Origin: a bacterium
GTDB lineage: Bacteria > Hydrothermota > Tepidihabitantia > Tepidihabitantales > Tepidihabitantaceae
Assembly: GCA_046485285.1 (NCBI GenBank)
Contig: JAWOHE010000074.1
Location: forward strand, 1 to 18,704
Reading direction: 5' to 3'
Length of the DNA stretch: 18,704 bases
Part shown: positions 3,036 through 18,704 of the stretch, piece after piece
How positions within the stretch are numbered: the stretch's first letter is position 1
Layout: every line of letters starts with the position of its first letter
Position numbers and translations under genes: made by a program
The notes under the pieces: model-generated
The model's database searches: none
What the model saw: only the letters and a program-made list of their open reading frames with translations
Told to the model about the DNA's origin: nothing

Positions 3036-3539
3036 GTGAAAGCAGTTGCCCTCAGCGCGGTGATGTTGCTCGCCCTTGTCGTTTCAGGCTGCGGCGCACC
3101 GGCCCCGTCCGCGCAATCCGAGGCCGTACCCCCGGCCGACAGCATCGCGGCCGAGCCTGAGACGCCGGCCGAGGTGGCTGACACGACCCCGCCCGCGCCG
3201 GCGGGCAGCCCGGCCCCGGCCGGCGAGGCCCAGCCAATGCACAAGCCGGTCGAGCCCGCCGTCCTGCCCAAGCTCTACGACTTCTGGGCGACCTGGTGCC
3301 CGCCCTGCCGCGAACAGTCCCCGATCATCGAGGAGCTCAAGGCCGAGTATGCCGGCAAGGTTGACGTCATCGCCGTTAACGTCGACGAGCAGTCCGAGAT
3401 GGCCAAGCAGTACGAAATCAAGGTCATCCCGACCCTCGTCTTCGTCGACGCGGCCGGCAAGGAGGTCGAGCGCCGCACCGGCCTGACCCCGAAGAGCACC
3501 CTCGTCGAGCGCTTCAAGGCGCTCGGCTTCATCGATTAG
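3036..3539 (+). CDS. Thioredoxin-family lipoprotein (WCPPC)
   Basis: AGGAGG then GTG at 3036 (in frame with track ORF 3006). Lipobox LVVSG|C, Pro/Ala linker, DFWATWCPPC active site and cis-Pro motif VIPT. Confidence 0.88.
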   Translation: MKAVALSAVMLLALVVSGCGAPAPSAQSEAVPPADSIAAEPETPAEVADTTPPAPAGSPAPAGEAQPMHKPVEPAVLPKLYDFWATWCPPCREQSPIIEELKAEYAGKVDVIAVNVDEQSEMAKQYEIKVIPTLVFVDAAGKEVERRTGLTPKSTLVERFKALGFID

Positions 3540-3690: not shown

Positions 3691-4512
3691 CTAGCGGACC
3701 ACGAACTTCGCGAGCCCCTGCGCCGCGCCGCTGACCCGGACGAAGTAGGCCCCGGGCGCGAGCCCGGCCTGCAGGCGGAGGCAGTGACTGCCGGCCCCAA
3801 GCTCCGCCTCGATAACCGGCGCGACCAGCCTGCCCGCGCGGTCGCGGACCGTGACCGCGACCCGCCCCGCGCGGCCGGCCGCGAACCGCACCGCTACCGG
3901 GCCCGCCGCCGGGTTCGGCCGGACGCTGACCGGCACGGCCGTGAACCGCCCCGGCGGCTCCTCGACCGCGCCCGCCCCCTCGACGAGGCTCGCGTCATCG
4001 AAGTGGATCACCCCGCCCGCCGGTCGGCCGGTGAAGCCGTAGCAGCGGAGCATGCAGTCGGCGTAGGCGGCGCCAGCGGGCGCAGTCGCGGTCCTCGCGA
4101 CCCTCTGCCAGGTGAGGATTGTCGAGTCGGAATAGCTCGTGCCCGAGTGACCGACGTAGCTCGTGTCCGCCGCCAGCCAGGCCATCCCGACGCCGCCGGC
4201 GACGTTGTAGTAGTCGTCGTGGCAGTAGGCGGCCAGCGTGTACTCCCGTACGGCGGTCACCGGGACGAGCTGCCTGATGCCGGCGTTGTTGCCCGTGCCT
4301 TCGACCCGCCGGGTGAGCTTCACCGCCGCCGGCGCCGAACGGACCGTGGTCTCGGTGCGTTCGACCCGGGTCTTGGTCGAATCCTCGACCAGTCAGCCGA
4401 CCGGACACGCGCCGGCCCACTCGGTGAAGTCGCCGTTGGCCAGGAGCTCCGCGTCGGCCGCCCCGCCGAGCAGAACCCCGGCCGCGATCGCCAGGGCCGT
4501 CATCTTCATCAT
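3691..4512 (-). pseudogene. Secreted CBM4/9-like beta-sandwich protein with T9SS type-A/FlgD-Ig-like C-terminal domain, interrupted by an in-frame TGA (4395-4393)
   Basis: GAGGAGG (4523-4517) then ATG at 4512 or 4509: MMKMTALAIAAGVLLGGAADAELLANGDFTEWAGACPVG*LVEDSTKTRVER..., continuing in frame into track ORF 3691..4323. C-terminus reads 'VRPNPAAG...VRDRAGRLV...LAPGAYFVRV...KFVVR'. Confidence 0.72.
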
Positions 4513-4589: not shown

Positions 4590-6698
4590 CTACCGGTTCT
4601 TCGCCCGGCGGGCGGCGACGATCTCCTCGGCGATGGCGAAGGGCACCGGCTCGTAGCGCTCGAGGTGCATCGTGAAAACCGCCCGGCCCTGGCTCAGGTT
4701 CCGGAGCTCGGTCGCGTAGCCGCTCCGCCCGTCGGACAACTGCCCGCACATCGTCGCGAGCGGCACCCGCGCCCGGACGACCTTGGCGTTGCCTTGCGCG
4801 TCCATCCCGAGGATCGTCCCGCGCCGGTTGCAGAGCGAGCCGATTATCGCGCCCGAGAACTCCTCCGGGGTCACGACGCTGACGCTCATCACCGGCTCGA
4901 GCAGGCCGGGCAGGCCCTTGAGGAACCCGCGCCGGAACGCGTGGCTGGCGCAGGCCCGGAACGCCATGTCCGAGGAATCGACCTCGTGGAAAGAGCCGTC
5001 GAGCAGGGTCACCCGCAGGTCGACGACCGGGAACCCGGCGTAGACGCCCTTGCGCATCATCTCGGTCACCCCGCGCTCGATCGACGGCACGTACTCCTTC
5101 GGCACCCGGCCGCCGACGACCTTGTTGACGAACTCAAAGCCCTGCCCGCCCCCGAGCGGCTCGAGCTTCATCACGACGTGGGCGTACTGGCCGCGGCCGC
5201 CGGTCTGCTTGACCAGCCGCTCGTCGACCTCGACCGCCTGGGTCATCGCCTCGCGGTAGGCGACCTGCGGCGCGCCGGTCACGACATCGACGCCGAACTC
5301 CCGCTTCAGCCGGTCGATGATTATCTCGAGGTGCAGCTCGCCCATCCCGGCGATGACCGTCTCCTCGGTCTCGGCGTCGGTCGCGACGATGAAAGTCGGG
5401 TCCTCCTCGGCGAGCCGCGCGAGACTCGCACCCAGCCGTTCGCGGTCCTTGCGCTCGCTGACCCCGACCGCGACCGACAGCACCGGCGCCGGGAACTCGA
5501 TCGCCTCGAGGACGATCGGGTGCTCGGGCGCGCAGATCGTGTCGCCGGTGACCGTATCGGCCAGCCCGACCACCACGCCGATCTCGCCCGAGTAGAGCGC
5601 CTCGACCGGCTCCCGGCGGTCGGCGTGCATCCGGAGCAGGCGGCCGGCGCGCTGCTCGCGGCGGTTGGTCGAGTTGAGCACCGCGCTGCCGGCCGCGAGC
5701 GTGCCCGAGTAGACCCGGACGTAGACCAGCTTGCCGACGTGCCGGTCGGATACGACCTTGAACGCCAGCGCCGCCAGCCGGCCCGAGTCCTTCGGCACCC
5801 GCTCGATCGGCTCGCCCTCGAGCGCCCGGCCCGAGACCGGCGGCAGGTCGAGCGGGCTCGGCAGGTAGGCCACGACCGCGTCGAGCAGGCGCTGGATGCC
5901 CTTGTTCTTGAACGCACTGCCGCACAGCACCGGACAGACAAGGTGCTTGTGCGTCGCCTTACGGATTGCCCGCGACAGCTCGCGGGCGCCGATCGACCGG
6001 TCGCTGAGGAATTTCTCGAGCAGGCCCTCGTCGACCTCCGCCACCCGCTCGAGCAGGTACTGCTTCCAGCGCCGGACCTCCTCCGCCATCTCCGGCGGCA
6101 CCGGCTCCTCGCGGAAGGTCATCCCCCGGTCGGTGTCGTCGTAGTAGACCGCGACGTCATCGACGAGGTCGACGATGCCCCGGAACCGCTCCTCGGCGCC
6201 GATCGGTATCGTCACCGGCACCGCGTTCGCCCCGAGCTCGTTCTCGATCTCGTCCATCACCGAGTAGAAGTCCGCTCCGGCCCGGTCCATCTTGTTCACG
6301 AAGGCGATCCGCGGGACCGCGTACTTCTCGGCCTGGCGCCAGACCGCCTCCGACTGCGGCTCGACCCCGCCGACCGCGCAGAACAGCCCGATGACTCCGT
6401 CCAGCACCCGCAGGCTGCGCTCGACCTCGACCGTGAAATCGACGTGGCCGGGCGTGTCGATGAGGTTGATGGCGTGGTCGCGCCAGACCGTCGTCGTCGC
6501 CGCGCTGGTGATGGTGATGCCGCGCTCCTGCTCCTGGGGCATCCAGTCCATCACCGCCGCGCCGTCGTGGACCTCGCCCGGCCGGTGGACCCGGCCGGTG
6601 TAGTAGAGGATGCGCTCCGACACCGTCGTCTTGCCCGCGTCGATGTGAGCCATGATGCCGATATTGCGGACGCGCTCGAGCGAGTACTGTCTTGCCAT
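4590..6698 (-). CDS. fusA: Elongation factor G (stand-alone, probably a second copy), 702 aa
   Basis: Start [25 protein letters not shown] at 6698 with a GGAG SD. Motifs [42 protein letters not shown] and SFHEVDSS are present. No rpsL, rpsG or tuf neighbours. Confidence 0.96.
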
Positions 6699-6797
6699 GA
6701 TATCAACTCCAAATGCCCCCGGCCGACTGCCGGCGGGCGGTAAGAGACTGCTCTCGGGACGGGATTCGGGAACGGCGGAACCCGGCCTGACGCACTG

Positions 6798-6826
6798 ACT
6801 ATAACCTGAAACGAAGAACCCGTCAA
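6798..6826 (-). promoter_or_regulatory. Sigma70-type promoter of fusA
   Basis: Minus strand TTGACG (6826-6821), 17-nt spacer, TATAGT (6803-6798). Confidence 0.7.
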
Positions 6827-6839
6827 GCAGGCGGCGCGC

Positions 6840-6867
6840 TTGACCGCCCCGCTTCCGATTGTATAAT
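6840..6867 (+). promoter_or_regulatory. Sigma70-type promoter of the ars operon
   Basis: TTGACC (6840-6845), 16-nt spacer, TATAAT (6862-6867). Confidence 0.78.
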
Positions 6868-6882
6868 TGCACAGTTATGCAA
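6863..6882. promoter_or_regulatory. Putative ArsR operator overlapping the -10, transcription start and arsR ATG
   Basis: TTGCA-cagtta-TGCAA (6867-6882), plus the overlapping imperfect palindrome ATAATTGCACAGTTAT (6863-6878). AT-rich patch in GC-rich DNA. Confidence 0.6.
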
Positions 6883-7230
6883 CATATCTCCGGCCCGGCC
6901 CGCCTGCTCGCCGCGCTCGGTAACGAACACCGGCTCGCGATCCTCGAGCTCCTGCGCCCGGGCGAACGCTGCGTCTGCGAGATAACCCCGGCCTTCGCGC
7001 TCGACGCCTCGGTCGTCTCCCGGCACCTCGCCGTCCTCGAGCGGGCCGGCGTCGTCCGCTCCCGCCGCGCTGGCCGGCGCATCTTCTACCGCGTCGCCGA
7101 CCGCCGGACGCTCGGCCTGCTCGACGACGTCGCCGCGATGCTAGCGACCCCGGGCAAGGCCCGGCCGGCCGGCCGCGCGGTGCCGGCCGCGTGCTGTGCT
7201 ACGAACTACAGGAGGACTCCCGATGCCTGA
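6877..7230 (+). CDS. arsR: ArsR/SmtB-family As(III)-responsive repressor
   Basis: [16 protein letters not shown]....[16 protein letters not shown]...R.GRRIFYR winged HTH with an alpha3 CVC motif and a C-terminal CC. ATG at 6877 lies just downstream of the -10 box. Confidence 0.92.
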
Positions 7231-8065
7231 ATCCGAAGACAACATCCGCCGGCAGGTCCGCGCCGGCTACGCGGAGGTGGCGCGCGGTGCCGGGTCGTGC
7301 TGCGGCGGCACGTCCTGCTGCGGCAACGCCCCGGCCGCCGCGGCGACGAGCCGGGCCGTCGGCTACAGCGACGCCGACCTCGCCGCGGTCCCGGACGGCG
7401 CCAACCTCGGCCTCGGCTGCGGCAACCCGGTCGCGCTGGCCGGCCTCAAGCCGGGCGAGACCGTCGTCGACCTCGGCTCCGGCGCCGGCGTCGACTGCTT
7501 CCTTGCCGCGAAGCAGGTCGGCCCGGCCGGCCGGGTCATCGGCGTCGACATGACCCCGGAGATGATCGAGAAGGCGCGCGCCAACGCCCGCAAGGCCGGC
7601 GTCGCCAACGTCGAGTTCCGGCTCGGTGAAATCGAGCACCTGCCGGTCGCCGACGCCTCGGCCGACGTCATCATCTCCAACTGCGTCATCAACCTCTCGC
7701 CCGACAAGCCGCAGGCCTTCCGCGAGGCGTTCCGGGTGCTCCGGCCCGGCGGCCGGCTGATGGTTTCCGACATCGTGCTCGCCACGCCCCTGCCCCGGGC
7801 CCTGCTCGACTCCGCCGCCGCCTACGTCGGCTGCATCTCGGGCGCGAGCCTGCGCGCGGACTACCTCGCGATGATTGCCGCGGCCGGGTTCCGGGACGTC
7901 ACGGCCGTGTCCGAAGAGCGCTTCCCGGTCGAGGCGTCGGCCAGTGACCCGACCCTGCAGGCGCTCGTCCGCGAGTCCGGCCTCGCCGACGACGACTTGC
8001 GCCGTGCCGCATCCGGCGTTATGAGCCTCAAGGTCGCCGCGACCAAGCCGACCCCGGAGGTGTGA
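7223..8065 (+). CDS. arsM: Arsenite S-adenosylmethionine methyltransferase
   Basis: AGGAGG then ATG at 7223. Motifs SCCGGTSCCG, NLGLGCGNP, VDLGSGAGVDC (SAM motif I), VIISNCVINL and YVGCISGA. Confidence 0.95.
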   Translation: MPESEDNIRRQVRAGYAEVARGAGSCCGGTSCCGNAPAAAATSRAVGYSDADLAAVPDGANLGLGCGNPVALAGLKPGETVVDLGSGAGVDCFLAAKQVGPAGRVIGVDMTPEMIEKARANARKAGVANVEFRLGEIEHLPVADASADVIISNCVINLSPDKPQAFREAFRVLRPGGRLMVSDIVLATPLPRALLDSAAAYVGCISGASLRADYLAMIAAAGFRDVTAVSEERFPVEASASDPTLQALVRESGLADDDLRRAASGVMSLKVAATKPTPEV

Positions 8066-8766
8066 TGCTTGAGGCAATCCTCGCCGGCGCGGACCGGATA
8101 ATCTCGACCCAGCCCCTGCTCGCGGTCCCGGTCGTCTTTCTCGGCGGCCTCGTCACCGCGCTCAACCCCTGCGTGCTCGCCTCGATTCCCCTCGCAATCG
8201 GCTTCGTCGGCGGCTACGCCCGGGGCCGGAGCAAAGGCTACGCCTTCCTGCTCGCGCTGTTCCTGTTCATCGGCATCGCCGCCGCCTTCACCGCGCTCGG
8301 GATGGTCGCCGGCCTCGCCGGCACGCTCTTCGGCACCACCTCGAAGTTCTGGCCGGTGCTGATTATCGTTGTCTGCGTCGTGATGGGCGGGCAGATTCTC
8401 TTCTTCCCGAATTTCGAACTGCCGATGCCCCGCGGCATCACCCCGAAGACCGGCGGCGTCGTCGGCGCGTTCCTGCTCGGCGCGCTGACCGGGGTCATCG
8501 CCACGCCCTGCGCGATGCCGATCCTTGCCGTCATCCTGTCCTATGTCGCGTCGAGGGGCAACGTCCTTTACGGCGGGCTCCTGCTCTTCACCTACGCCCT
8601 CGGCCATTCCGTGCTCGTCCTCGCCGCCGGCAGCTCGATGGGCCTTGCCGAGGCGATGGTCAACTCGAAGGGCCTGAAGAAGGGGTCCGCCATCCTCAAG
8701 AAGGCCTCGGGCGTCCTGCTCCTGCTCGTGGCCGCGTACTTCGTCTATGAGCTGTTCAAACGCTGA
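8065..8766 (+). CDS. ccdA: CcdA/DsbD transmembrane-domain electron transporter
   Basis: About six hydrophobic segments with the two catalytic Pro-Cys motifs LNPCVL and ATPCAMP. GGAGG SD and TGATG overlap with arsM (the track starts 3 nt earlier at a GTG). Confidence 0.88.
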   Translation: MLEAILAGADRIISTQPLLAVPVVFLGGLVTALNPCVLASIPLAIGFVGGYARGRSKGYAFLLALFLFIGIAAAFTALGMVAGLAGTLFGTTSKFWPVLIIVVCVVMGGQILFFPNFELPMPRGITPKTGGVVGAFLLGALTGVIATPCAMPILAVILSYVASRGNVLYGGLLLFTYALGHSVLVLAAGSSMGLAEAMVNSKGLKKGSAILKKASGVLLLLVAAYFVYELFKR

Positions 8767-8782
8767 ATCCGGAGGTACAGTA

Positions 8783-9313
8783 ATGAAGCGCCTGACCTTC
8801 TCCGTCGCGTCCGCGGTCCTGATGCTCGCGATGCTGACCGGCTGTCCCGGTCCCGGGCCCGCCGCCACCGTGCCCGGGCCTGACACGAGCCTCGCGGCCC
8901 AGGACGAAATCTGCGAGACGCTGCCCGCGACCGACTCCACCGCAGTTGCCGCCCTGCCGGACTCGCCCCCGGCCAGGCCGGAACCGAAACCGGAGCCCGC
9001 GCCCGAGCCGGAGCCCGCGCCGCCGCCGAAGCCGAAGGTCCTGCCCCGGATGTGGGACTTCGGCTCCGACAACTGCCTGCCCTGCGTTGAGATGGAAAAG
9101 ATCCTGACGCCGCTGATGACCGACTACAAGGGCAGGGTCGACATCCGCATCATCAACGTCTACCAGGACCGTGAGCGAACGATGCAGGCGCGCATCCAGA
9201 TAATCCCCACCCAGATCTTCTACGACCCGGAGGGCAGGGAGCTCTTCCGCCACATCGGCATCTATCCCCGCGACTCCATCGTCGCGAAGTTCCGCGAGTT
9301 CGGCTGGGAGTAG
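8783..9313 (+). CDS. Thioredoxin-family lipoprotein (CLPC)
   Basis: GGAGG then ATG at 8783. Lipobox MLTG|C, PEP-rich linker, DFGSDNCLPC, IPTQIFYD..G.E..RH.G. Confidence 0.88.
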   Translation: MKRLTFSVASAVLMLAMLTGCPGPGPAATVPGPDTSLAAQDEICETLPATDSTAVAALPDSPPARPEPKPEPAPEPEPAPPPKPKVLPRMWDFGSDNCLPCVEMEKILTPLMTDYKGRVDIRIINVYQDRERTMQARIQIIPTQIFYDPEGRELFRHIGIYPRDSIVAKFREFGWE

Positions 9314-9316
9314 CCG

Positions 9317-10489
9317 GTGAAGGAACGGACCAAGTTCCTCGTCATCCTCGCCGCGTTCCTGCTCTTCTTCTTCCTGCCGGTCGGGCTGCCGCGGGTCCAG
9401 GGCGCACTGCTCGAAGGCTTCCTGATGCTCCAGGACTACGCCCGGCTCCACATCCTGCTGTGCCTCGTGCCCGCCTTCTTCATCGCCGGCGCAATCCAGA
9501 ACTTCATCTCGCGGGAAGCGGTGCTCAAGTACTTCGGCCCGAAGTCGAACAAGGTCCTCGCCTACTCGGTCGCCTCGGTCTCGGGCGCGATTCTCGCGGT
9601 CTGCTCCTGCACCGTCCTGCCGATGTTCATGGGCATCTACTACGCCGGCGCCGGGCTCGGCGTCGCCTCGACCTTCCTCTACTCCGGCCCGGCCATCAAC
9701 GTCCTCGCCATCCTGATGACCGGCCGGGTACTCGGCCTCGAACTCGGCGCGGCCCGGGCAATCGGCGCGGTCGTCTTCTCGGTCGTCATCGGGCTCGGGA
9801 TGGCGCTCATCTTTCTCAAGTCCGAGCGCCAGCGGGCCGAAGGCGCGGGCCTGGCCGGCCTGTCGGCGGAAGCGCCCCGCCGCAACCTCGGCCAGAACGT
9901 CCTCTACTTCGCGGCAATGATCGCCTTCCTCGTCTTCGCCAACTGGGGCCGGCCGAAGGAGCCCATCGGCTTCTTCAACTTCGTCTTCTCGATCAAGTGG
10001 TACCTTGCCGGCGCGTTCCTGCTCGCCACGCTCGCGATGGCCTGGCGCTGGTTCGACTCCGGGGAGCGCAAGGCCTGGGTCCAGTCGACCTGGACCTTCG
10101 CCAAACAGATACTGCCGCTCCTGCTCGGCGGGGTGTTTGTCGCCGGGTTCCTGCTCGGCCGGCCGGGCCTCAATGCCGGCATCATCCCGGACGGCATCAT
10201 CGCCGGCCTCGTCGGCGGCAACTCGCTCTGGTCAAACCTGTTCGCCTCGGTATCGGGCGCGCTGATGTACTTCGCGACCCTGACCGAGATTCCCATCCTC
10301 CAGGGCCTCCTCGGCTCGGGGATGGGCAAGGGTCCGGCGCTCGCGCTGTTGCTGTCCGGCCCGGCGCTCTCCCTGCCCTCGATGATCGTCATCATCCGCA
10401 CCATCGGCCCGCGCCGGGCGCTGACGTTCATCCTCCTCGTGGTCACACTCTCGACCATCGTCGGCCTTGTCTATGGAGCGATTGCGTAA
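9317..10489 (+). CDS. arsP: ArsP-family (DUF318) permease; characterised members export trivalent organoarsenicals such as MAs(III)
   Basis: 390-aa polytopic membrane protein with LAVCSCTVLP, FLYSGPAIN, YFATLTEIP and LLSGPALSLPS, in an ars context. Confidence 0.85.
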   Translation: MKERTKFLVILAAFLLFFFLPVGLPRVQGALLEGFLMLQDYARLHILLCLVPAFFIAGAIQNFISREAVLKYFGPKSNKVLAYSVASVSGAILAVCSCTVLPMFMGIYYAGAGLGVASTFLYSGPAINVLAILMTGRVLGLELGAARAIGAVVFSVVIGLGMALIFLKSERQRAEGAGLAGLSAEAPRRNLGQNVLYFAAMIAFLVFANWGRPKEPIGFFNFVFSIKWYLAGAFLLATLAMAWRWFDSGERKAWVQSTWTFAKQILPLLLGGVFVAGFLLGRPGLNAGIIPDGIIAGLVGGNSLWSNLFASVSGALMYFATLTEIPILQGLLGSGMGKGPALALLLSGPALSLPSMIVIIRTIGPRRALTFILLVVTLSTIVGLVYGAIA

Positions 10490-10536
10490 CTCCCCGTTGA
10501 CGCCCCGGGCTTGCAGCGGGGCCAAGGAGGTATCTG

Positions 10537-11409
10537 ATGTTTGAACGGATTCTCATCGCCACCGACCTCAGCGAGACCTCGGAACAGGTGGTCAGCAGTC
10601 TCGCGCCACTCCGTGCCCACGGCGCGCGGGAGGCGATCGTGCTGTACTGCCTGAACGCCAGCGCGCCCGAGCCGCTGACCTCGGATATGCTGAAGTTCGT
10701 CCAGCCGAAACTCGACCGCCAGTTCGCGCTGGCCCGCGAGGCCGGCCTTGACGCCAAGGTCGAGGTCGCCATCGGCGCGCCGCAGCGGGAGGTCCACCGG
10801 GTCGCCGATGACCGGGACGTCTCGCTCATTGTCATCGGCTCGCACGGCCACTCTCTCGCATTCCAGAGCCTCTTCGGCAGCACCGCCTGCACCATTCTTC
10901 ACGACGCCCGCCGACCGCTGCTGGTGATGCGCGTTCGCCACGTCGAGCGCGACGGTCGGAAGGTCAACGAGGTGGTGCCCTTCGCGCCGGCTCACCACGT
11001 GCTCTACGCCACCGACTTCTCGGACAACGCCGAACACGCCTTCGGCCACGTCCGGGAGCTGGCCCGGACGGGCGGGAAACGGTTCACCCTCGTGCACGTC
11101 CAGGACAAGACCCGCATCGGCAAGCACCTCGCAGACCGCCTCGAGGAGTTCAACAAGATCGACACTGCCCGGCTTGAGCGGCTCAGGGGACAACTGGCGG
11201 AGGATGGGGCCCGCGATGTCGCCGTCGAGTTGCCCTACGGTTCGCCCGTGGTCGAGATACTCCGCGTCGCCCGGGAGCGCGAAGCCTCTCTGCTCGTGAT
11301 GGGCAACCAGGGCCGCGGTTTCATCAAGGAGGTCTTCCTCGGCAGTGTCAGCCACAACGTGGCCCACCAGGCACCGGTGCCCCTGCTGCTGATACCGGCA
11401 CCGCGCTAG
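10537..11409 (+). CDS. Universal stress protein, tandem USP domains
   Basis: Two repeats: ILIATDLS...LIVIGSHGH..LFGST and VLYATDFS...LLVMGNQGRG...FLGSVSHNV. AAGGAGG SD. Confidence 0.93.
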   Translation: MFERILIATDLSETSEQVVSSLAPLRAHGAREAIVLYCLNASAPEPLTSDMLKFVQPKLDRQFALAREAGLDAKVEVAIGAPQREVHRVADDRDVSLIVIGSHGHSLAFQSLFGSTACTILHDARRPLLVMRVRHVERDGRKVNEVVPFAPAHHVLYATDFSDNAEHAFGHVRELARTGGKRFTLVHVQDKTRIGKHLADRLEEFNKIDTARLERLRGQLAEDGARDVAVELPYGSPVVEILRVAREREASLLVMGNQGRGFIKEVFLGSVSHNVAHQAPVPLLLIPAPR

Positions 11410-11439
11410 CAGAGTAACGATCCGGAACAGGAGGATACG

Positions 11440-11682
11440 ATGAAAGTCCAGGTACTCGGAATCGGCTGTGCCCGCTGCCAGGAACTCGAAAAGCGGGTCC
11501 GCGACACACTCGCGGAGATGAACCTCGCCGCGGACATCGAGAAGGTAACCGAACTCCAGAAGTTCGCCGCCATGGGCGTCTTCATGACGCCCGGGCTCGT
11601 GATTGACGGCAAGGTCGTCTCGCAGGGCAGGATCCCGTCCAAGGACGAAATGAAGAAACTGCTCGCCGGGGGTTCGGCATGA
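11440..11682 (+). CDS. Small MTH895/TM0996-type (Thioredoxin_3) redox-active disulfide protein
   Basis: 80 aa: MKVQVLGIGCARC...GVFMTPGLVIDGKVVSQGRIPS. AGGAGG SD. Confidence 0.9.
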   Translation: MKVQVLGIGCARCQELEKRVRDTLAEMNLAADIEKVTELQKFAAMGVFMTPGLVIDGKVVSQGRIPSKDEMKKLLAGGSA

Positions 11683-12446
11683 GACGAGGAGCGCGCCTCC
11701 GGATACTGTTCGTCGCGCTGGCCGGTCTGGTCGGGCTGGCTCAGGCCGAACCCAATCCGCCGCCACTCCTGGACTTCGACAGCACCGTCACCGCGGCGCG
11801 GCTTGAGCTGCGCTCCTACTGCGCGCTCGTCCAGAAGCTCGACTCGGCCAGCACCGCGGAGGCGGTCAACGTCACGCTCGACCACCTCGGCCGCGCGCAG
11901 GCCGTCTGGCGCGAAGTCGTAGCGCGCTACGGAACGAACCCGCCGGCCGAGTACCTGTCCGATGCAGGCTTCGCGGCCCGGCTCGCGGACGTCGAGACGG
12001 CAATGGGGCAGATGGAGTCGCTGCTGAGAGCCGGCGACTACGCGGGCTCGTTCAAGGCCTGCGGCAAGGGCTGCGCGGAGTTCATCCGGATGCACGAGGA
12101 GAACCGTCTCGCCTACGCTTCCGACCGGCTGTACCACCTCCGCCGGGCCACCAAAGACGCCATCGCGACGGCAAAGGACTCAGCCGGGCCGGGCCGCGCC
12201 GACTCGCTGGTCGCCCGGGTTTTGGAGCTCCGCAACCGCGCGCTCCTCGGTCCATGCCCGTATCCGGGGGACACCGACCGGTGTCAGTGCTACCGGAGGA
12301 AGGTGAGCGACATGTCCGCGGCCGTGGACCGCTTCGTCCTGGCCCGGCATCACCGGGACGCGGCGTTCGCCGCCACCGGAGACGCCCTGATGGACGCGGT
12401 GAATCGCGCCTATTCGGCGGCCCTGCGCTGCACCAACAAGGAATGA
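11679..12446 (+). CDS. Hypothetical secreted, Cys-rich, probably alpha-helical protein
   Basis: 255 aa with signal peptide ...GLVGLAQA|EP and 7 Cys. ATGA overlaps with both neighbours support a real gene. I do not recognise the family. Confidence 0.75.
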   Translation: MRRGARLRILFVALAGLVGLAQAEPNPPPLLDFDSTVTAARLELRSYCALVQKLDSASTAEAVNVTLDHLGRAQAVWREVVARYGTNPPAEYLSDAGFAARLADVETAMGQMESLLRAGDYAGSFKACGKGCAEFIRMHEENRLAYASDRLYHLRRATKDAIATAKDSAGPGRADSLVARVLELRNRALLGPCPYPGDTDRCQCYRRKVSDMSAAVDRFVLARHHRDAAFAATGDALMDAVNRAYSAALRCTNKE

Positions 12447-13729
12447 CCGCGCTGTTCCTGCTCGTCACGCTGGTCGCTGCCGCCGACCCGGCCGGTGTCG
12501 ACGCCGACTCTGTCTTCATCAGCCTGGACCAGGTGCTGGCCGGAGTCTCGAGCGACAACCTGCGCCTGCAGGCCGCGTTCGCCCGCCTCGCCGGCGGTCA
12601 GGCTGAACTGCGTGCCGCGCGCGGCGAGTGGATTCCCGACCTAAGCATCAGCGGGGAGTACACCTGGCTCGATCTCGTGCCCCAGAACAAGAAGCCTTTC
12701 ATCGGCGACTCTCCGCACGACTTCCTCACTACGGTCGGCGTGCGCCAGCCGCTCTACGACGGCGGGCGAGCCGCTGCCCGGTACCGCTCGGCCCGGGCGC
12801 GCATCACTCAGGATTCAGCCGGGCTCTCCGCCGAGGCGATGGCGGTGCGCTTCGAGGCCCAGCGGCTCTACCGCCGGCTCCAGGGGCTCAGGCAGGAGAC
12901 TGCGGTGCTCGAGCACAGCCGCGACAACATGACCGCCCGGCTGAAGCGAACCCGGCTGCTGCAGGCTGCGGGCCGGCTATCGGCGCTCGACCTTGGCCGG
13001 CTCGAGGTCGAAGCGGCCGGCCTTGACAATCGCCTGATTGCCGCCCGCAACCAGTTCGCGGCAGCCTCACGCAGTCTGGCCGCGCTGCTCGGCCGGTCAG
13101 ACTCCGCCGTTCTCGTGCCTGTTGACTCGCTGGCCGCCGAGACCGCGGGCTTCGCGCTGCCCGGGCCGGACGACGCTCGCCGGCTCATTGACGAGAGCCC
13201 GGAGCTGGCACAGCGTGCGGCCGACGTTGAGCAAGCTCGGGCCGGCGTCACCTCGGCCCGGGCCGCGCTGCTGCCGAGCGTTGACGGGGCTGCCTGGTAC
13301 GGATGGGAGTTTGGGCCGGACAGCTTCTCTTTGCAGAAGAACGACCGCTACTACGCCGGGGTGCGGGCCGCGATTCCGCTGCTCGACGGCGGCACCGCCC
13401 GGAACCGTCTCAGTTCGGCCGATGCCTCTCTTCGCGCCGCGCGACTTCGGAGGGAGGATACCGAGCTGCGCCTGCAGGCCGAGGTCGCCAATGGGCTGGC
13501 CGCGCTTCAGGAGTACCCGGAACGCATAGCGGTACAGCGTCGCGCGGTCGAGCAGGCCCGCGCCAACCTGCGTACCGCGGACCTGGAGTATTCCGCCGGT
13601 CGTCGCTCCGCAACCGACGCCATCCAGATACAGCAAAGCCTGCTCGAATCCGAGCTGACGCTGGCCGGGCTTTATGAGGGCTATCACAACGCCCGAGCCC
13701 GGTTGCTGGCACTGCTCGGACTGCTCTAA
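12443..13729 (+). CDS. TolC-family outer membrane factor
   Basis: ATG at 12443 (ATGA overlap). Two OEP repeats: 'WIPDLSISGEY...VRQPLYDGG' and 'LLPSVDG...AAIPLLDGG'. C-terminal YHNARARLLALLG. Confidence 0.92.
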   Translation: MTALFLLVTLVAAADPAGVDADSVFISLDQVLAGVSSDNLRLQAAFARLAGGQAELRAARGEWIPDLSISGEYTWLDLVPQNKKPFIGDSPHDFLTTVGVRQPLYDGGRAAARYRSARARITQDSAGLSAEAMAVRFEAQRLYRRLQGLRQETAVLEHSRDNMTARLKRTRLLQAAGRLSALDLGRLEVEAAGLDNRLIAARNQFAAASRSLAALLGRSDSAVLVPVDSLAAETAGFALPGPDDARRLIDESPELAQRAADVEQARAGVTSARAALLPSVDGAAWYGWEFGPDSFSLQKNDRYYAGVRAAIPLLDGGTARNRLSSADASLRAARLRREDTELRLQAEVANGLAALQEYPERIAVQRRAVEQARANLRTADLEYSAGRRSATDAIQIQQSLLESELTLAGLYEGYHNARARLLALLGLL

Positions 13730-13744
13730 ACAGGAGGTCTGCCG

Positions 13745-14773
13745 ATGTCCCGATACCTGAGCAGCACGCGCCGCCGAGTCGGTAGCGGCCTTTCACTTGC
13801 CCTGGCCGCCATCCTGCTTCACCTGGCCTGTGGCCGGCAGGCCGCTGAAACCGGCGGGCCAAAGCCACCCTTGGTCAAGACCGCGGTCGCCCAACTGGGG
13901 ACCATCAGGCAGGAACTCGAGCTGCCCGGCACGGTCCGGCCGTCAGCCGTTGCCGGCGTCCTGTCGACGACCGAGGGCAAGGTGAGCCGTCTTCTCGCCC
14001 GCGAAGGAGACCGCGTCGAGGAAGGAACGGCACTCGCTTACGTTAGTCCGCTGGTGCGCGAGGACATCGTCAACGCCGCGCGCGTGGCGGCCGAATCGCT
14101 GCGCGCAATCGGCCGACAGCCGCTGGCCGAGGCCGAGGAGAATCTCCGCTTCGCCCTCGCCGAGTATCGTGAGTCCCCGCTCGTCGCGCCGATGACCGGG
14201 GTCGTATCACAGCGATCCGCCGACATCGGCGACATGGTCGTCCCCCGCCAGAAGCTGTACGAGGTGCAGAGTGTCGGGGCGTTCCGCGTTGACGTAACCG
14301 TGCCCGAGTTGAGCATCTCCGGTGTCGGCCGCGGCGCAAACGTCAGGCTGCGCGCCGATGCCTGGCCCGACCGGGAGTTCAACGGACGAGTGGAGCGGGT
14401 GCACCCGCGACTCGACGAGTTGACCCGCACCGGGATGGTGGAAATCGTACCGCAGCCACCCTTCCCTGAACTCAAGGCCGGCATGATGGTTCGGGTGTCA
14501 ATCGCGACCGCGCAAGCCGACTCTGCGGTCATCGTCCCGGTGGCCGCGGTCACCGTCACGCCCAACGGCCAGCAGGTGGTCTACGTTGTGGACGCCGACA
14601 CCGCCCGGCAGCGCCAGGTCAGGACCGGCATCGAGTCGGGCAGCCGTGTGCAACTGCTCGACGGCGTGGCCGCGGGCGAATCAGTCATAACCGCGGGCAA
14701 CGAACGGCTTCGTGACGGCGCTGCGGTGCGCGTCCAGTCGGGCAAAGCAGGCGCACCGGGAAGAGAGGACTAG
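13745..14773 (+). CDS. RND periplasmic adaptor (membrane fusion protein), probable lipoprotein
   Basis: LHLA|C, lipoyl halves (GKVSRLLAREGDRVEEG; APMTGVV), LKAGMM, IVPVAAV and GVAAGESVITAG. AGGAGG SD. Confidence 0.92.
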   Translation: MSRYLSSTRRRVGSGLSLALAAILLHLACGRQAAETGGPKPPLVKTAVAQLGTIRQELELPGTVRPSAVAGVLSTTEGKVSRLLAREGDRVEEGTALAYVSPLVREDIVNAARVAAESLRAIGRQPLAEAEENLRFALAEYRESPLVAPMTGVVSQRSADIGDMVVPRQKLYEVQSVGAFRVDVTVPELSISGVGRGANVRLRADAWPDREFNGRVERVHPRLDELTRTGMVEIVPQPPFPELKAGMMVRVSIATAQADSAVIVPVAAVTVTPNGQQVVYVVDADTARQRQVRTGIESGSRVQLLDGVAAGESVITAGNERLRDGAAVRVQSGKAGAPGRED

Positions 14774-14776
14774 AGC

Positions 14777-17700
14777 GTGAAGCTCTCGTCCGTATCCATC
14801 AGCCGCCCGGTAGCGGTCAGCGTCCTCGCGGTCGCGGTCGCGGTCATCGGGTTCTTCAGCCTCCAGACCCTGGAAGTGGACTACCTGCCCAAGGTCACCT
14901 ACCCGATGGTCAAGATCCACATCTGGTATCGCGGAGCCACCGCCGAGGAAATCGAGACCACGATTGCCGAACCAATCGAGCGGGTGATGGCAACCGTGGA
15001 CAACCTCGACTACCTGGAGTCGTCGAGCATCGAGGGCATGTACACCCTGCTCGTCAACTTCAAGTATGGCGTCGACATCGAGGATGCGTACGCCGACGTC
15101 ACCACCGCGATGGGCCGGGTGGCGCGCCAGCTCCCGGCCGACATGGACCCGCCGGTCATCATCAAGGCCGACCCGTCCCAGTTGCCGGTGATGGAAGTGA
15201 CCGTCAGTTCCGACCGCCACGACCTGGTCTGGCTGCGCGACTGGTCCGAGAACTGGCTGACCGACCGCCTCAATGCGGTCGACGGCACCGCCGGCGTCGA
15301 AGCGGTCGGCGGGCTCAAGCGGGAAATCCGGGTGCTGCTCGATGCCCGCCGCCTCGCGGCGTACGGACTCACTCCGGCCGCAGTGGTGAAAGCCCTGCAG
15401 GAAGAGAACCGCGAGATGTTCGCCGGCCGCGTCACGGTCGGCGCGCGCGAGATCATCGCCCGCACCGCGGGAGAGTTCGGGTCCCTTGAGGAGATGGCCG
15501 AGGTCGTGGTGCTTCGCGGCCCGGACGGCCGCGAGGTCCGGGTCAAGGACTTCGCAACCATCGAGGACTCGCACGAAGAAGCCCGGGTCATCACCCGGTT
15601 CAACGGCCGCCCCTGCGTCAAGCTCAACGTCCTGAAGCAGGCCGACGCCAACACGGTCGCGGTCTCCAAGGCGGTCGCGGTCCGGCTGGCGGAGCTGGAA
15701 GCCGAGGCGCCCGAGGGCGTTTCGTTCAGCTACGTCGAGAACCAGGGCGAGTACGTGATGGCGGCCATCAACAGCGTCGGCAGTTCCGCGATACTTGCCG
15801 CCATGCTTGTCATCTTCATCGTCTACCTGTTCCTCGGCCAGTGGCGGCCCGTGGTCGTGATGGGAACCGCGATGCCGCTCACCCTGCTGGCCAGCTTCCT
15901 GCTGATGCGGCTGGCCGGATTCTCATTGAACCTCTTCTCGCTCGGCGGTCTGGTCGTCGCGCTGGGCGTCATCCTCGACAACTCGATTGTCGTACTCGAG
16001 AGCATCACGCGCCAGCGCAAGCTGGCCGCGCCCGACTTTGCCCTGCGCGGTACCAGCGAAGTCGGCTCGGCCATCATCGCCTCAACCGTGACTTTTGTCG
16101 CCATCTTCCTGCCTTTCGTCTTCATCCCCGGCCTCGCCGCGCTGCTGTTCCAGGAGCTGGTGCTGGTGATCGCCGGCATCGTGCTCATCTCGCTCGCCGT
16201 CGCCCTGACCTGGACCCCGTTCCTCACCGACCGCCTGCTCCGGGCCGAACGCCACGGACAGTCGTTCCCGTTCATGCGGGCGGTTGAAGGCGGAATCAGC
16301 CGCGCCACGGAACGCTACTCGGCTCTGCTCGACCGGCTGCTGGCCCGGGCCCGCTGGCCGGTGGTCATCATCGCCGGGCTGCTGCTGGCGGTCGGGCTTT
16401 TCTTCGCCGGACGGGTCGGCTCCGAATTCCTGCCCTCGGTCGATGACGGCCGGGTAATGGTCAAGGTCCGTTTGCCCAGCGGTGCATCGGTCGCCACGAC
16501 CGATTCCATTCTCTCCCGGCTTGAGGCGGCGGTCCAGGACGAACCGGAGATCGCCAGCATCTTCACCATGGCCGGCGGCCGGGTCTGGGGTCTTGCGACC
16601 TACGAGGTCGCAAACGAAGGCGAGCTCGATATCCAGCTTGTCCGGCGCTCCCGCCGCCGGGTAACGACCCGCCAGTTCATGGACCGCATCCGGCCGATTG
16701 TCGGCAAGGTCCCGGCCCCGGGCGGCCGAATCGGGGTCTCGCAGATGAAGGTCAAGGGCATCCGTCAGGTGGGGACACAGGAAGTAGAGGTCCGCGTACG
16801 GGGACCGGAAATGGGCGGAATCTACGCATTCGCCCGCCAGGTCGCCGCGACGCTCGACACCGTTCCCGGCCTGACCAACGTCACGCTCGCGGTGGACATG
16901 ACCAAGCCTGAGTACCGCTGCCGGCTCGACCGGACCCGGGCCGCGGCCCTCGGCGTCACGGTGAGCGAGTTCGCCGCCGCCCTCCGCGCCCAGGTCGGCG
17001 GAACGGTCGCGAGCCGGTACCGCGTCGGCACCGACTACTACAACATCCGGGTCATCGTGCCGGAATCGAAGCTGACCAGCCGCACCGACCTTGAGGGACT
17101 TGTCATCAAGCAACGGAACGGCCGGCCGGTGTATGTGCGCGACGTCGCGCAGGTCCTGCCTTCGGTCGGCCCGGTGGAGATCGTCCGCACCGACCAGGTC
17201 AAGGAAGTGGTCGTCGGTTCCGACCGGCTTGGGGTGAGCGTCGGCGAAGCTACCGGCCGTGCCGCGGCAGCGGTCGCCGCGATGGAACGAACATCCGGCG
17301 TCGAGTACGTGATGGGCGGACAGGCCCAGATGATGGCCGAGAACCAGCGCACGATGAGCCTGATAATCGCCTTCGCCGCGCTGCTTGCCTTTGTCGTCCT
17401 TGCTGTCCAGTTTGAGTCCCTGCTACTGCCGCTCCTGATACTCGTCGGCATTCCCCTGTCGCTGACCGGCACATTCGCCGCGCTCGCGCTCAGCGGCAGC
17501 GCGCTCGGGTCAACGGTTCAAATCGGCATGGTCGTGATGATGGGCGCGATCATGTCCCAGGGCGTGGTCCTGCTCAGCCTTGCCGAGTCCCATCGCCGGG
17601 CCGGAGTGCCGGCGAACCAAGCGGTGCTGCGGGCCGCGCCGGTCCGGTTGCGGGCGATCCTGATGACCCAGTTGACGACGATTCTCGGGCTCGTGCCGCT

Positions 17701-17902
17701 CGCCCTCAATCTCGGCGAGGGCGGCGACATGCTCAAGCCGATGGCCATCGCGGTCATCGGCGGGCTCATCTACTCGCTGGCCGTGACCCTCTTCTTCCTG
17801 CCCGCGGCCTACTCGCTGGTGCTCGGGTGGAAGAAGCCCGCCGGCCACGAGCCGGCGCCGCCGACGGATGCCGCTTCGGCCGACAACCAGGCCGTGAACT
17901 GA
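14777..17902 (+). CDS. RND efflux transporter inner-membrane subunit (AcrB/AcrD/AcrF-like)
   Basis: 1041 aa with SISRPVAV, LNLFSLGGL..LGVILDNSIVVLE, IFLPF, SEFLPSVDDG, LAVQFES, RLRAILMT and PMAIAVIGGL. Confidence 0.96.
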   Translation: MKLSSVSISRPVAVSVLAVAVAVIGFFSLQTLEVDYLPKVTYPMVKIHIWYRGATAEEIETTIAEPIERVMATVDNLDYLESSSIEGMYTLLVNFKYGVDIEDAYADVTTAMGRVARQLPADMDPPVIIKADPSQLPVMEVTVSSDRHDLVWLRDWSENWLTDRLNAVDGTAGVEAVGGLKREIRVLLDARRLAAYGLTPAAVVKALQEENREMFAGRVTVGAREIIARTAGEFGSLEEMAEVVVLRGPDGREVRVKDFATIEDSHEEARVITRFNGRPCVKLNVLKQADANTVAVSKAVAVRLAELEAEAPEGVSFSYVENQGEYVMAAINSVGSSAILAAMLVIFIVYLFLGQWRPVVVMGTAMPLTLLASFLLMRLAGFSLNLFSLGGLVVALGVILDNSIVVLESITRQRKLAAPDFALRGTSEVGSAIIASTVTFVAIFLPFVFIPGLAALLFQELVLVIAGIVLISLAVALTWTPFLTDRLLRAERHGQSFPFMRAVEGGISRATERYSALLDRLLARARWPVVIIAGLLLAVGLFFAGRVGSEFLPSVDDGRVMVKVRLPSGASVATTDSILSRLEAAVQDEPEIASIFTMAGGRVWGLATYEVANEGELDIQLVRRSRRRVTTRQFMDRIRPIVGKVPAPGGRIGVSQMKVKGIRQVGTQEVEVRVRGPEMGGIYAFARQVAATLDTVPGLTNVTLAVDMTKPEYRCRLDRTRAAALGVTVSEFAAALRAQVGGTVASRYRVGTDYYNIRVIVPESKLTSRTDLEGLVIKQRNGRPVYVRDVAQVLPSVGPVEIVRTDQVKEVVVGSDRLGVSVGEATGRAAAAVAAMERTSGVEYVMGGQAQMMAENQRTMSLIIAFAALLAFVVLAVQFESLLLPLLILVGIPLSLTGTFAALALSGSALGSTVQIGMVVMMGAIMSQGVVLLSLAESHRRAGVPANQAVLRAAPVRLRAILMTQLTTILGLVPLALNLGEGGDMLKPMAIAVIGGLIYSLAVTLFFLPAAYSLVLGWKKPAGHEPAPPTDAASADNQAVN

Positions 17903-17923
17903 AGAACGCCAGGGAGAAACGAC

Positions 17924-18343
17924 ATGCCAGCTTGCTGCGGTAACAACAGCGAACCACAAGCCGCGCCGACCTGCGCCTGTGGCTCGAAGGACCTCCTGCT
18001 CCTCGCCTGCTCGGGTGGCTCGAACGTCGGCCAGATTGCCAACGACGCGGCAAAGGCGCTTGACGGCTACGGCCAGGGTTCGATGTACTGTGCCATCGGG
18101 GTCGGCGCGCAACTGCCCGGCTTCGTCAAAGGCGTGAAGGAGAAGTCGTGCGTGGCGATTGACGGCTGTCCGGTCGCCTGCGTGCGCAAGTCGCTGGAGA
18201 ATGTCGGGGTCGAGCCCGCGGTCCACGTCGTCGTCACCGAACTCGGCATCAAGAAGCACGGCGACTTCGACGGTACGAACGACGACATCGCCAAGGTCGT
18301 CGGCGCGGTCGTGGACGCGCTCGCGGCTCAAACAGGGACATAA
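17924..18343 (+). CDS. DGC-domain putative zinc-binding protein
   Basis: ACSGGSNVGQ, MYC and VAIDGCPVAC, with an extra N-terminal CC and CAC. Confidence 0.88.
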   Translation: MPACCGNNSEPQAAPTCACGSKDLLLLACSGGSNVGQIANDAAKALDGYGQGSMYCAIGVGAQLPGFVKGVKEKSCVAIDGCPVACVRKSLENVGVEPAVHVVVTELGIKKHGDFDGTNDDIAKVVGAVVDALAAQTGT

Positions 18344-18351
18344 CCGATTCC

Positions 18352-18396
18352 GGGGACATGACCCGTTTCGGTCCTCCGAACCGGGATCGTGTCCCC
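18352..18396. repeat. Long imperfect palindrome (REP-like or terminator) after the operon
   Basis: ggggacatgacccgtttcgg-tcct-ccgaaccgggatcgtgtcccc. A partial direct copy, gggacataacc (18335-18345), contains the DGC stop codon. Confidence 0.6.
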
Positions 18397-18529
18397 ATTC
18401 CCTAACCCGCCGCACTCGCACAAACTCCAATCGCCTGTGTTAGTCAAAACTAACGATTCCAGTTTTGCGAGAATCGTCATAACCGAATGAAAAACCGAGG
18501 CTTCATTCACCTTTGAATTTACCCCCTCC

Positions 18530-18704
18530 GGTCAAGTGCCGAATTGTCTGCAAAATGAGCCGTGCCGCTGTCTGTCTTCACGATTCGTCTTCGCACTGAC
18601 TCATATCGAGGTACTGGGGCTGACCGGCCCACTCGGCCGACTGCTCCATCGCGTGGGCGGTAACCAGTCGCAAGCAGGACGCTTCGTTCGGAAACACCCG
18701 GATC
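18530..18704 (-). mobile_element. IS256-family insertion sequence, right end
   Basis: Transposase C-terminus followed by a terminal-IR-like sequence, GGTCAAGTGCCGAATTGTCTGCAAAAT (18530-18556). The left end lies outside the window, so the IR boundary is inferred. Confidence 0.75.
18578..18703 (-). CDS. IS256-family (mutator-type) transposase, C-terminal fragment
   Basis: Translated by hand: IRVFPNEASCLRLVTAHAMEQSAEWAGQPQYLDMSQCEDES*, matching the IS256 C-terminal FPNxxSxLRL...E..EW....YL.M signature. Confidence 0.85.
   Translation of the reverse strand: MRVFPNEASCLRLVTAHAMEQSAEWAGQPQYLDMSQCEDES

Follow-up and report, generated by a model that had tools for sequence, protein, structure and literature searches.

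The 18,704-nucleotide contig JAWOHE010000074.1 (GenBank assembly GCA_046485285.1), from a bacterium of the phylum Hydrothermota, carries a twelve-gene cluster (positions 6877-18343, + strand) in which arsenic-resistance genes adjoin those for a tripartite efflux pump of the resistance-nodulation-division (RND) type and for a secreted protein of 255 amino acids. The window analysed here is this entire contig, one of 102 in a 2.34 Mb genome that is 88% complete. Homologues of these proteins form a conserved multi-phylum partnership that comprises a distinct RND clade, the 255-aa protein with three conserved cysteines, a CcdA-thioredoxin (Trx) pair and an ArsR/ArsP/ArsE/DGC cassette, and that commonly lies amid ACR3 and ArsC genes. 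The recurrent pairing of the pump with the 255-aa protein in uncultured bacteria of many phyla suggests, at the level of sequence, an undescribed form of arsenic expulsion through both membranes. For the cluster itself, the evidence tips modestly toward an ArsR-repressed operon whose products would export arsenicals across both membranes in two stages.

The twelve genes encode, in order, ArsR, ArsM, a CcdA/DsbD-type membrane protein, a lipoprotein Trx, an ArsP-family permease (ArsP_1), a tandem universal stress protein (Usp), ArsE, the 255-aa protein, an outer-membrane factor (OMF), a membrane-fusion protein (MFP), the RND transporter and a DGC-domain protein. The pump, the 255-aa protein and their recurrent neighbours are referred to below as the module.

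The pump and the 255-aa protein recur beside arsenic genes in many phyla

A scan of a genome collection with the closer subfamily of the 255-aa family yielded 20 loci, one of which repeats the locus of a close relative described below. These loci are labelled WOR-3, Zhuqueibacter, Cytophagia, Planctomycetes, Omnitrophota, Verrucomicrobiota, Calditrichota, Neomarinimicrobiota and others. Neighbouring genes were scored by tblastn with the window proteins, with at least 35% of the query covered. Pump parts are present beside the 255-aa gene in 18 of the 20 loci, including every one of the 15 that span at least 7 kb; the remaining two loci consist of contigs just 1.9 and 3.1 kb long. Of the 20, 13 encode one or more of ArsR, ArsM, ArsP, ArsE, DGC, ACR3 and ArsC, and 10 encode Trx or DsbD. 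Pfam scans of 274 open reading frames (ORFs) from 19 of these loci confirmed the family assignments.

Metagenomes were scanned with the second, more distant subfamily, which yielded 43 loci. Pump parts were found in 23 of these and in 17 of the 23 loci that reach at least 7 kb. Among the latter 23 loci, 14 encode ACR3, ArsC or ArsM and 10 encode Trx or DsbD. ACR3 proteins scoring over the NCBIfam cut-off occur in 13 loci (L019, L020, L021, L027, L028, L043, L065, L069, L078, L080, L088, L091 and L093). For the ArsC-like proteins, arsenate-reductase models are the best matches, with scores below the equivalog cut-offs.

Gene order varies from locus to locus while the same set of genes is kept on one strand. 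For example, locus L087 reads arsR-ArsP-DGC-ArsE-Trx-DsbD-255-aa-OMF-MFP-RND, whereas L070 reads ArsP-OMF-MFP-RND-255-aa-ArsE-ArsC-DGC-Trx and L101 reads arsR-DsbD-Trx-ArsP-255-aa-OMF-MFP-RND-Usp-ArsE-DGC. Other arrangements are arsR-ACR3-Usp-ArsC-OMF-RND-255-aa (L080) and ArsM-ArsP(split)-OMF-MFP-RND-255-aa (L089); L026 and L028 both have a split ArsP gene whose two halves sit between the OMF and MFP genes. The first-pass annotation had named a rarity of RND homologues near ars genes as one result that would count against its proposal. The linkage instead extends across many phyla and is absent from the 16 control loci described below.

The same annotation had portrayed the cluster as a system to 'methylate and pump' and had raised the secretion of the trivalent methylarsenical MAs(III) against competitors. 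ArsM is encoded in four of the 64 loci that carry the 255-aa family, namely the window, its close relative, and L072 and L089, where it scores over the cut-off; this count is a lower bound, since many of the 64 loci are short. This distribution indicates that methylation was added in particular lineages and is not what the module is for. Thus, the linkage of the pump to ars genes holds, whereas the placement of ArsM at the core does not. Secretion of MAs(III) against competitors is likewise not supported as originally stated, and either activity would at best be a lineage-specific use of a general export module.

Several further families recur among the Pfam-annotated neighbours in the 19 loci: ACR3-type SBF proteins, ArsC of the LMWP phosphatase type, tandem Usp, P5CR-like oxidoreductases, CoA-disulfide-reductase-like flavoproteins, rhodanese, TauE, MauE and DUF169. 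P5CR-like genes are seen in L011, L016, L019, L024, L026, L028 and L005, and CoA-disulfide-reductase-like genes in L019, L027, L028 and L029. Rhodanese genes occur in L016 (as a rhodanese-MauE pair) and L019, TauE in L019 and L026, and DUF169 in L019, L027 and L029. Split ArsP genes, with half-size ORFs of ~140-200 aa, were noted at L026 12087-13123, L028 12024-13063, L005 3112-4097, L088 2408-3357 and L089 1359-2308. A gene of the PD-(D/E)XK nuclease family (PF13366) sits between the MFP and RND genes at L012 5108-5476 and L014 4026-4436. On the two contigs of one assembly that carry L027 and L029, the RND, OMF and flavoprotein genes are each split into several ORFs, which may reflect either assembly frameshift errors or real decay.

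Module-linked RND transporters stand apart within the phylum

The phylum was represented by a collection of 272 species genomes, three of which encode the 255-aa protein. One of these, from another genus of the same family, carries the full set of twelve in unchanged order, with 55-95% amino-acid identity for the individual genes. Synteny of the whole cluster in a second genus indicates that the cluster is not a product of chance. The related cluster differs in that a reverse-transcriptase gene and a 312-aa ORF lie between usp and arsE, and in that a second arsE precedes the DGC gene. The inserted segment (L004 8075-10958) encodes a reverse transcriptase of 604 aa (PF00078) along with the 312-aa ORF, for which no family was found, and contains a 22-residue duplicate of the start of arsE (L004 9046-9111); it looks like a mobile retroelement that entered the operon. 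A genome from another family of the same class, G122, encodes a split ArsP, a cupin, an OMF, an MFP, an RND transporter, a 26%-identical relative of the 255-aa protein and ArsE. No ArsM is encoded at this locus; the methyltransferases found near the module in G122 and in L021 were considered for this role and proved not to be ArsM.

RND proteins as such are common in the phylum, with a match at E≤1e-100 in 219 of the 272 genomes. Matches of at least 42% identity to the window RND occur in only six: the window's own genome and five others at 95%, 63%, 63%, 62% and 42%, the remaining matches listed being at or below 34%. One of the 62-63% relatives, which belongs to the same bacterial family (L043), reads DsbD-Trx-ArsP-ArsC-ArsE-OMF-MFP-RND-ArsE-ACR3 on one strand. 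The other two loci of this identity class are short contigs that carry the pump alone, with an ArsR-like gene in one.

As controls, we used 16 RND loci of 28-33% identity from 16 phylum genomes, including that of the window, each spanning 15-20 kb. None of the 16 encodes any of eleven neighbour families at 40% query coverage. At 35% coverage, a single control locus gives a 32%-identical match of 110 residues to the SAM-binding core of ArsM, which represents a generic methyltransferase. A FastTree phylogeny of 43 RND proteins was confined to module-linked and control sequences. One branch, with an SH-like support of 100%, separates the 29 module-linked proteins from the 14 controls; the program warned of composition bias and of one long-branch pair among the controls.

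Features of the tripartite pump and the 255-aa protein

The OMF gene (12443..13729, + strand) encodes a TolC/OEP-family protein (PF02321, 187.6 bits). Its start was inferred from the translation, and its ATG overlaps the stop codon of the 255-aa gene (ATGA). The adjoining gene (13745..14773, + strand) encodes a membrane-fusion, or periplasmic adaptor, lipoprotein with the lipobox LHLAC (TIGR01730, 161.4 bits against a cut-off of 94.9; PF16576). The RND inner-membrane transporter (14777..17902, + strand) matches PF00873 over residues 4-1015 (774 bits, cut-off 28) and remains under every curated NCBIfam cut-off. Its scores with models of the hydrophobe/amphiphile efflux (HAE-1) class are 667.6 and 551.3 bits (NF033617/NF000282, each against 1250) and 460.8 bits (TIGR00915, against 940.35), and with the heavy-metal efflux (HME) model TIGR00914 (CusA/CzcA) 409 bits against 701.45. 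The nearest solved structures are those of MdtB (343.2 bits), ZneA (286.9 bits) and CmeB, MexB and AcrB (about 280 bits).

In an alignment of 14 module RND proteins, transmembrane helix 4 (TM4) carries the pattern L-D-N/Q-S, in which D401 is the only Asp, and the Glu seven residues further on (E408) is conserved; the presumed TM10 carries S-Q-G, N-N or N-D where a Lys is expected. The correspondence of these TM4 and TM10 residues to AcrB numbering is one we presume, AcrB lying outside the alignment. Several Met columns are conserved in the module proteins. Clusters of the CusA type were looked for among them; a mapping onto CusA was not achieved.

The 255-aa protein (11679..12446, + strand) has a signal peptide, matches no Pfam family and represents an undescribed family. 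It had been called 'Cys-rich', which overstates the case; cysteines are indeed present, seven in all, and three of them are conserved in the family. A profile search against 1.84 billion representative proteins recovered 139 representative clusters at E≤0.001, of which 83 also pass E≤1e-10, and a word-indexed protein search recovered two proteins of the family. The ESM Atlas holds solely 'hypothetical protein' clusters for it, and the clusters of ten relatives consist entirely of metagenomic proteins, either unnamed or annotated as 'hypothetical protein'. Among 54 aligned members, C48 and C128 are invariant, and C132 (forming C-x3-C), W77, Y92, M112, D149, R155 and Y245 are nearly so. The N-termini of these proteins are hydrophobic and resemble signal peptides, and the distant subfamily retains the same three cysteines.

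An AlphaFold2 model of the protein consists of two tandem four-helix bundles (pLDDT 92.4, pTM 0.83). Judging by helix register in this model, C48 (helix 1), M112 (helix 3) and C128/C132 (helix 4) would lie at similar height in the first bundle. A Foldseek search with the model against the PDB gave no match at E≤0.001. In a wide VIA-align search, the best hits are generic four-helix bundles (talin, cytochrome b562, PsbQ and cytochrome c') with a top Z of 13.4, which is within the range common for helical bundles, so that the fold searches are uninformative. A haem site of the c-type or b562-type cytochromes was rejected, as the protein lacks CxxCH and the His that follows C-x3-C (H139) is not conserved, for which reason C-x3-C is not read as a haem site. 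Membership of the CusF-type metallochaperones by family or fold was rejected as well, given the absence of a Pfam match and the all-helical model; any likeness to CusF is one of role only. A complex prediction for MFP residues 30-342 with residues 24-255 of the 255-aa protein, using alignment inputs, scored 0.00 without controls, a value that gives no verdict and that was used in neither direction.

Organization of the twelve-gene cluster

The cluster had been described in the first-pass annotation as twelve co-oriented genes behind one promoter, separated by overlaps or gaps of at most 47 nt. ORF calls, Pfam and NCBIfam searches and translations bear this description out: all twelve genes are on the + strand, and the eleven junctions measure, in order, -8, -4, +16, +3, +47, +30, -4, -4, +15, +3 and +21 nt. 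The starts of the Trx lipoprotein (8783), OMF (12443) and ArsM (7223) genes were refined from translations. The G+C content of the window is about 65-75%.

A promoter-like site (TTGACC-16 nt-TATAAT, 6840..6867, + strand) that agrees with the sigma-70 pattern at 11 of 12 positions is the sole sigma-70-like site on the + strand in the 12.1 kb scanned (6600-18704). Its TATAAT box ends 9 nt upstream of the arsR ATG, and the transcript would therefore be leaderless or nearly so. The -35 box, the -10 box and the leaderless ATG align between the window (6840-6879) and the related genus (L010, about 2150-2200; TTGAC, TGTAT.., ATG). The same region holds 10 terminator-like sites, which is the chance level (6.6 ± 2.2 expected). 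Nine are located inside cluster genes and the tenth is on the - strand in the intergenic region before arsR; no such site was found on the + strand between cluster genes. A stem-loop that follows the last gene (18352..18396, + strand; -35.3 kcal/mol, z -4.97, with 0 of 200 shuffles folding as well) lacks a U tract and likely marks the operon end.

The arsR product (6877..7230, + strand) is an ArsR/SmtB repressor (PF01022, 49.3 bits; NF033788, 85.7 bits against a cut-off of 55) with a Cys-Val-Cys motif (ERCVCEI) and a C-terminal Cys-Cys. The CVC motif is the As(III)/Sb(III) site of R773-type repressors and is also used by Cd and Pb sensors. With this motif and its family match, the window protein has the features of an As(III)-responsive R773-type repressor and is predicted to bind arsenic. 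CVC or CIC is present in 11 of 14 ArsR proteins that adjoin the module, including that of the window, and the score of the latter with the BigR model is 41 bits, far under the cut-off of 155.

The arsM gene (7223..8065, + strand) starts behind AGGAGG, overlaps arsR by 8 nt and encodes an arsenite S-adenosylmethionine methyltransferase (NF008823, 359.1 bits against 263). Its cysteines lie in an N-terminal SCCGGTSCCG run and in the contexts GLGCGNP, SNCVINL and YVGCISG, and may correspond to the known catalytic and As-binding positions. Next are the CcdA/DsbD-type membrane thiol-disulfide electron transporter (8062..8766, + strand; PF02683, 78.2 bits, cut-off 27.1), which has both membrane Pro-Cys motifs (NPC and TPC), and the periplasmic lipoprotein Trx (8783..9313, + strand; PF13098 and PF00085), which has the lipobox LTGC, a Pro-rich linker and the active site CLPC. 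An identity of this DsbD_TM protein with ArsG was rejected on its score (24.5 bits against a cut-off of 200) and on the adjacent periplasmic Trx.

The ArsP-family inner-membrane permease (9317..10489, + strand) matches PF03773 (243.3 bits, cut-off 32.3), has a CSC motif and reaches no curated NCBIfam cut-off. It is followed by the tandem Usp (10537..11409, + strand), with two Usp domains (PF00582, 164.6 bits in 2 stretches), and by the ArsE/MTH895-type mini-thioredoxin (11440..11682, + strand; TIGR00412, 96.2 bits, cut-off 62), with the motif CARC. The last gene (17924..18343, + strand) encodes the DGC-domain protein (PF08859, 105.4 bits, cut-off 27), which has a Cys-rich N-terminus. Tandem Usp proteins 29-48% identical to that of the window recur in arsenic islands, often directly beside ACR3 (L019 14151-15023, L020 3369-4241, L027 15814-16218, L080 2770-3621 and L096 16371-17228).

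Pfam and NCBIfam searches of the scanned window ORFs revealed no arsC, acr3, arsB, arsA, arsD or arsH, as had been claimed from the sequence. A conventional ars locus is present elsewhere in the same genome, on contig C98, with two arsR genes, ACR3 (367.7 bits against a cut-off of 282.8) and an LMWP-type ArsC. There (L009 1647-9346), a TM1586-type nitroreductase-like gene follows the ArsC gene, and RNase_H_2 and PKD-domain genes are interspersed. A search of the genome, at its 88% completeness, found no ArsC of the PF03960 family.

Upstream of the cluster lies a divergent EF-G gene. Three more genes lie beyond it. One encodes another lipoprotein-like thioredoxin (3006-3539); the other two, both on the - strand, encode a protein of 741 aa that weakly matches a beta-roll (266-2491) and one of 210 aa whose weak match is to a type IX secretion sorting domain (3691-4323).

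A candidate two-stage route for arsenicals and its alternatives

We propose that ArsM would methylate As(III) in the cytoplasm as an add-on step of this lineage, and that the ArsP-family permease, together with ACR3 where present, would pass arsenicals in trivalent form to the periplasm. ArsE and DGC, two small thiol proteins of the cytoplasm, probably assist this export, because both travel with ArsP in arsenic-induced operons elsewhere. The dedicated OMF-MFP-RND pump would then clear the arsenical from the periplasm to the outside, which would prevent its re-entry or the poisoning of periplasmic dithiol proteins. We infer that the 255-aa protein is the periplasmic arsenical-binding partner of this pump. 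Its three conserved cysteines and its Met could together make up a thiolate site at which As(III) or MAs(III) is captured before being handed to the pump, a role parallel to that of CusF in serving CusCBA. The CcdA-type transporter and the lipoprotein Trx would carry reducing power across the membrane and keep these cysteines reduced.

A broader claim can be put forward tentatively, as we judge it to fall somewhat short of an even chance: the module may be a widespread envelope-spanning machine for arsenical efflux, with the first RND pump dedicated to a metalloid, fed by ArsP, served by three-Cys chaperones that CcdA-Trx reduces, and supplemented with ArsM in a few lineages. How bacteria with two membranes handle periplasmic arsenicals has hardly been asked so far. 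If the proposal is true, the arsenic cycle gains an outer-membrane step, RND pumps gain their first metalloid substrate, and a new family of periplasmic metalloid-binding proteins with a simple three-Cys site is added. It would also explain the CcdA-thioredoxin pairs in arsenic islands of anaerobes, and the 255-aa family could serve as a marker for locating such systems in metagenomes.

Several observations weigh against arsenical export by the pump and its partner. The RND transporter has no conserved Cys, in that no column holds Cys in at least 9 of the 14 aligned rows, and any thiolate chemistry would consequently fall to the accessory protein alone. As(OH)3 is small and neutral, and the gain from pumping it over the outer membrane is not obvious. 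PF03773 is a broad family, and the best NCBIfam matches of the permease are SaoE and a Cu/Zn exporter, far under the cut-offs. The CVC motif of ArsR is not exclusive to arsenic. Pump and partner are also not inseparable. In L091, the 255-aa gene has 2.3 kb upstream and 10 kb downstream that are free of pump genes, with arsR and ACR3 about 7 kb off; in L062 there is no pump in the 10 kb upstream of the 255-aa gene; and L043 has the pump but not the 255-aa gene. In several further pump-less loci the 255-aa gene is at a contig end. Lastly, genes for other metals and for sulfur metabolism accompany some loci, and these bear on the alternatives that follow.

One alternative, unlikely in our estimation yet deserving serious weight, is that the substrate is linked to sulfur, as with thioarsenicals, arsenic-thiol conjugates or persulfides and polysulfides, and that the 255-aa protein is not a passive chaperone but a Trx-dependent periplasmic redox enzyme with a three-Cys relay like that of Trx-coupled ArsC. 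Rhodanese, MauE, TauE, CoA-disulfide-reductase-like, DsrE, OsmC and CMD genes recur in L013, L016, L019, L026, L027, L028 and L029, and such a redox and sulfur gene set beside the module, seen in several phyla, may be a sign of chemistry based on persulfide or thioarsenic species; such genes are nevertheless absent from the window and its close relative. The dedicated CcdA-Trx supply adjoins the 255-aa gene in many loci, including L061, where Trx and DsbD alone are its neighbours and no pump is nearby. Three conserved cysteines would suit a disulfide cascade, by analogy with ArsC, as well as a binding site. Against this, the plain four-helix bundle fold matches no known oxidoreductase, and ArsR has an As(III)-type CVC site and scores poorly with the BigR model.

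A second alternative, which we regard as less probable still, holds that the pump and its partner export thiophilic metals or metalloids other than arsenic, such as Cd, Zn, Pb, Cu(I), Hg or Sb(III), singly or over a broad range, and that ars genes are merely the commonest neighbours in such islands. The module is flanked by CDF and ZIP genes in L011, L021 has a CDF gene between its RND and 255-aa genes, and L013 encodes a heavy-metal P-type (P1B) ATPase. The MFP matches the CusB-type barrel-sandwich domain PF16576 and scores 110.7 bits with CzcB/NccB, under the cut-off of 319.3. Moreover, the RND protein of G122 scores higher with the CusA/CzcA model (472.7 bits) than with TIGR00915 (444.3 bits), and the CVC site is common to Cd/Pb sensors. 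However, the window RND falls well below the CusA/CzcA cut-off, and the recurrent neighbours are specific to arsenic, with ACR3 in the 13 loci listed above, ArsC-type reductases and ArsM; in L043 the pump is embedded between ArsC and ACR3. The ArsP-ArsE-DGC cassette is, in addition, arsenic-induced in Pseudodesulfovibrio mercurii ND132 (bioRxiv 10.1101/2022.10.17.512643).

It is quite improbable that the RND protein is an ordinary multidrug or solvent pump hitch-hiking beside ars genes in mobile islands with no role in arsenic handling: its nearest solved structures are multidrug pumps, its best NCBIfam model is 'multidrug efflux RND permease' (667.6 bits, under the cut-off of 1250) and mobile-element genes occur in some loci (the reverse transcriptase in L004, transposases in L018 and L020), but the linkage is kept across many phyla despite shuffled gene orders and with ATGA-type overlaps, ArsP genes are inserted among the pump genes in L026 and L028, and the linked transporters form one clade apart from the ordinary RND proteins of the phylum, whose 16 control loci lack ars neighbours.

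Comparison with known systems

Textbook arsenic resistance stops at the inner membrane, with Acr3, ArsB, ArsAB, ArsP, ArsJ or ArsK, and to our knowledge all known ars systems end there. Full-text literature searches, for which most subscription journals and supplements were out of reach, returned no RND pump described as an arsenical exporter, which is consistent with the earlier claim that no RND/TolC pump is established in this role. A review of ars gene distribution (PMC6205960) names Acr3, ArsB, ArsP, MFS and MIP as the transporter families, and neither 'RND' nor 'outer membrane' occurs in its text (0 instances of each). The czc and ars operons of Cupriavidus are described as adjacent yet separate (PMC7060636).

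Compared with the canonical ars operons (arsRBC and arsR-acr3-arsC, and the ArsM/ArsP branch), the window cluster shares an ArsR with CVC, an ArsM over the cut-off and an ArsP-family permease; unlike in those operons, the acr3/arsC set of this genome is on a different contig. Literature searches on the ArsE and DGC families turned up solely the preprint on P. mercurii ND132, in which RNA-seq data show that arsenic raises expression of an ArsR-ArsP-ArsE(PF13192)-DGC(PF08859) operon. This 'operon C' resembles the window cluster in that ArsR, the PF03773 permease, the PF13192 mini-thioredoxin and the PF08859 DGC protein are present in both, and, as described there, differs from it in having no RND pump, periplasmic Cys protein, CcdA-Trx pair or ArsM (bioRxiv 10.1101/2022.10.17.512643).

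The pairing of a DsbD-type membrane transporter with a membrane-anchored periplasmic thioredoxin is shared with the CcdA-ResA/CcmG and ScsABCD systems. Unlike those, the window pair stands outside any context of cytochrome c maturation or copper stress, in an ars/RND operon beside a three-Cys protein that lacks CxxCH.

Two-stage logic is known for CopA with CusCFBA and for single-component drug pumps with AcrAB-TolC. In the CusCFBA system of E. coli, which handles Cu and Ag, an inner-membrane exporter feeds the periplasm, and a tripartite OMF-MFP-RND pump acts together with a small secreted soft-ligand protein. The window cluster likewise encodes a tripartite pump and a secreted soft-ligand protein, and the two-stage logic fits both. 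The accessory proteins differ, since that of the window is modelled as a tandem four-helix bundle with three conserved Cys, whereas CusF is a small beta-barrel with Met, His and Trp. The window RND also misses the CusA/CzcA cut-off, its regulator is an ArsR protein and not a two-component system, it is co-encoded with a CcdA-Trx supply of reductant, and its neighbours are arsenic genes. We classify the module as a metal-type RND efflux system with a periplasmic partner that was probably recruited to arsenic resistance and that includes a new protein family.

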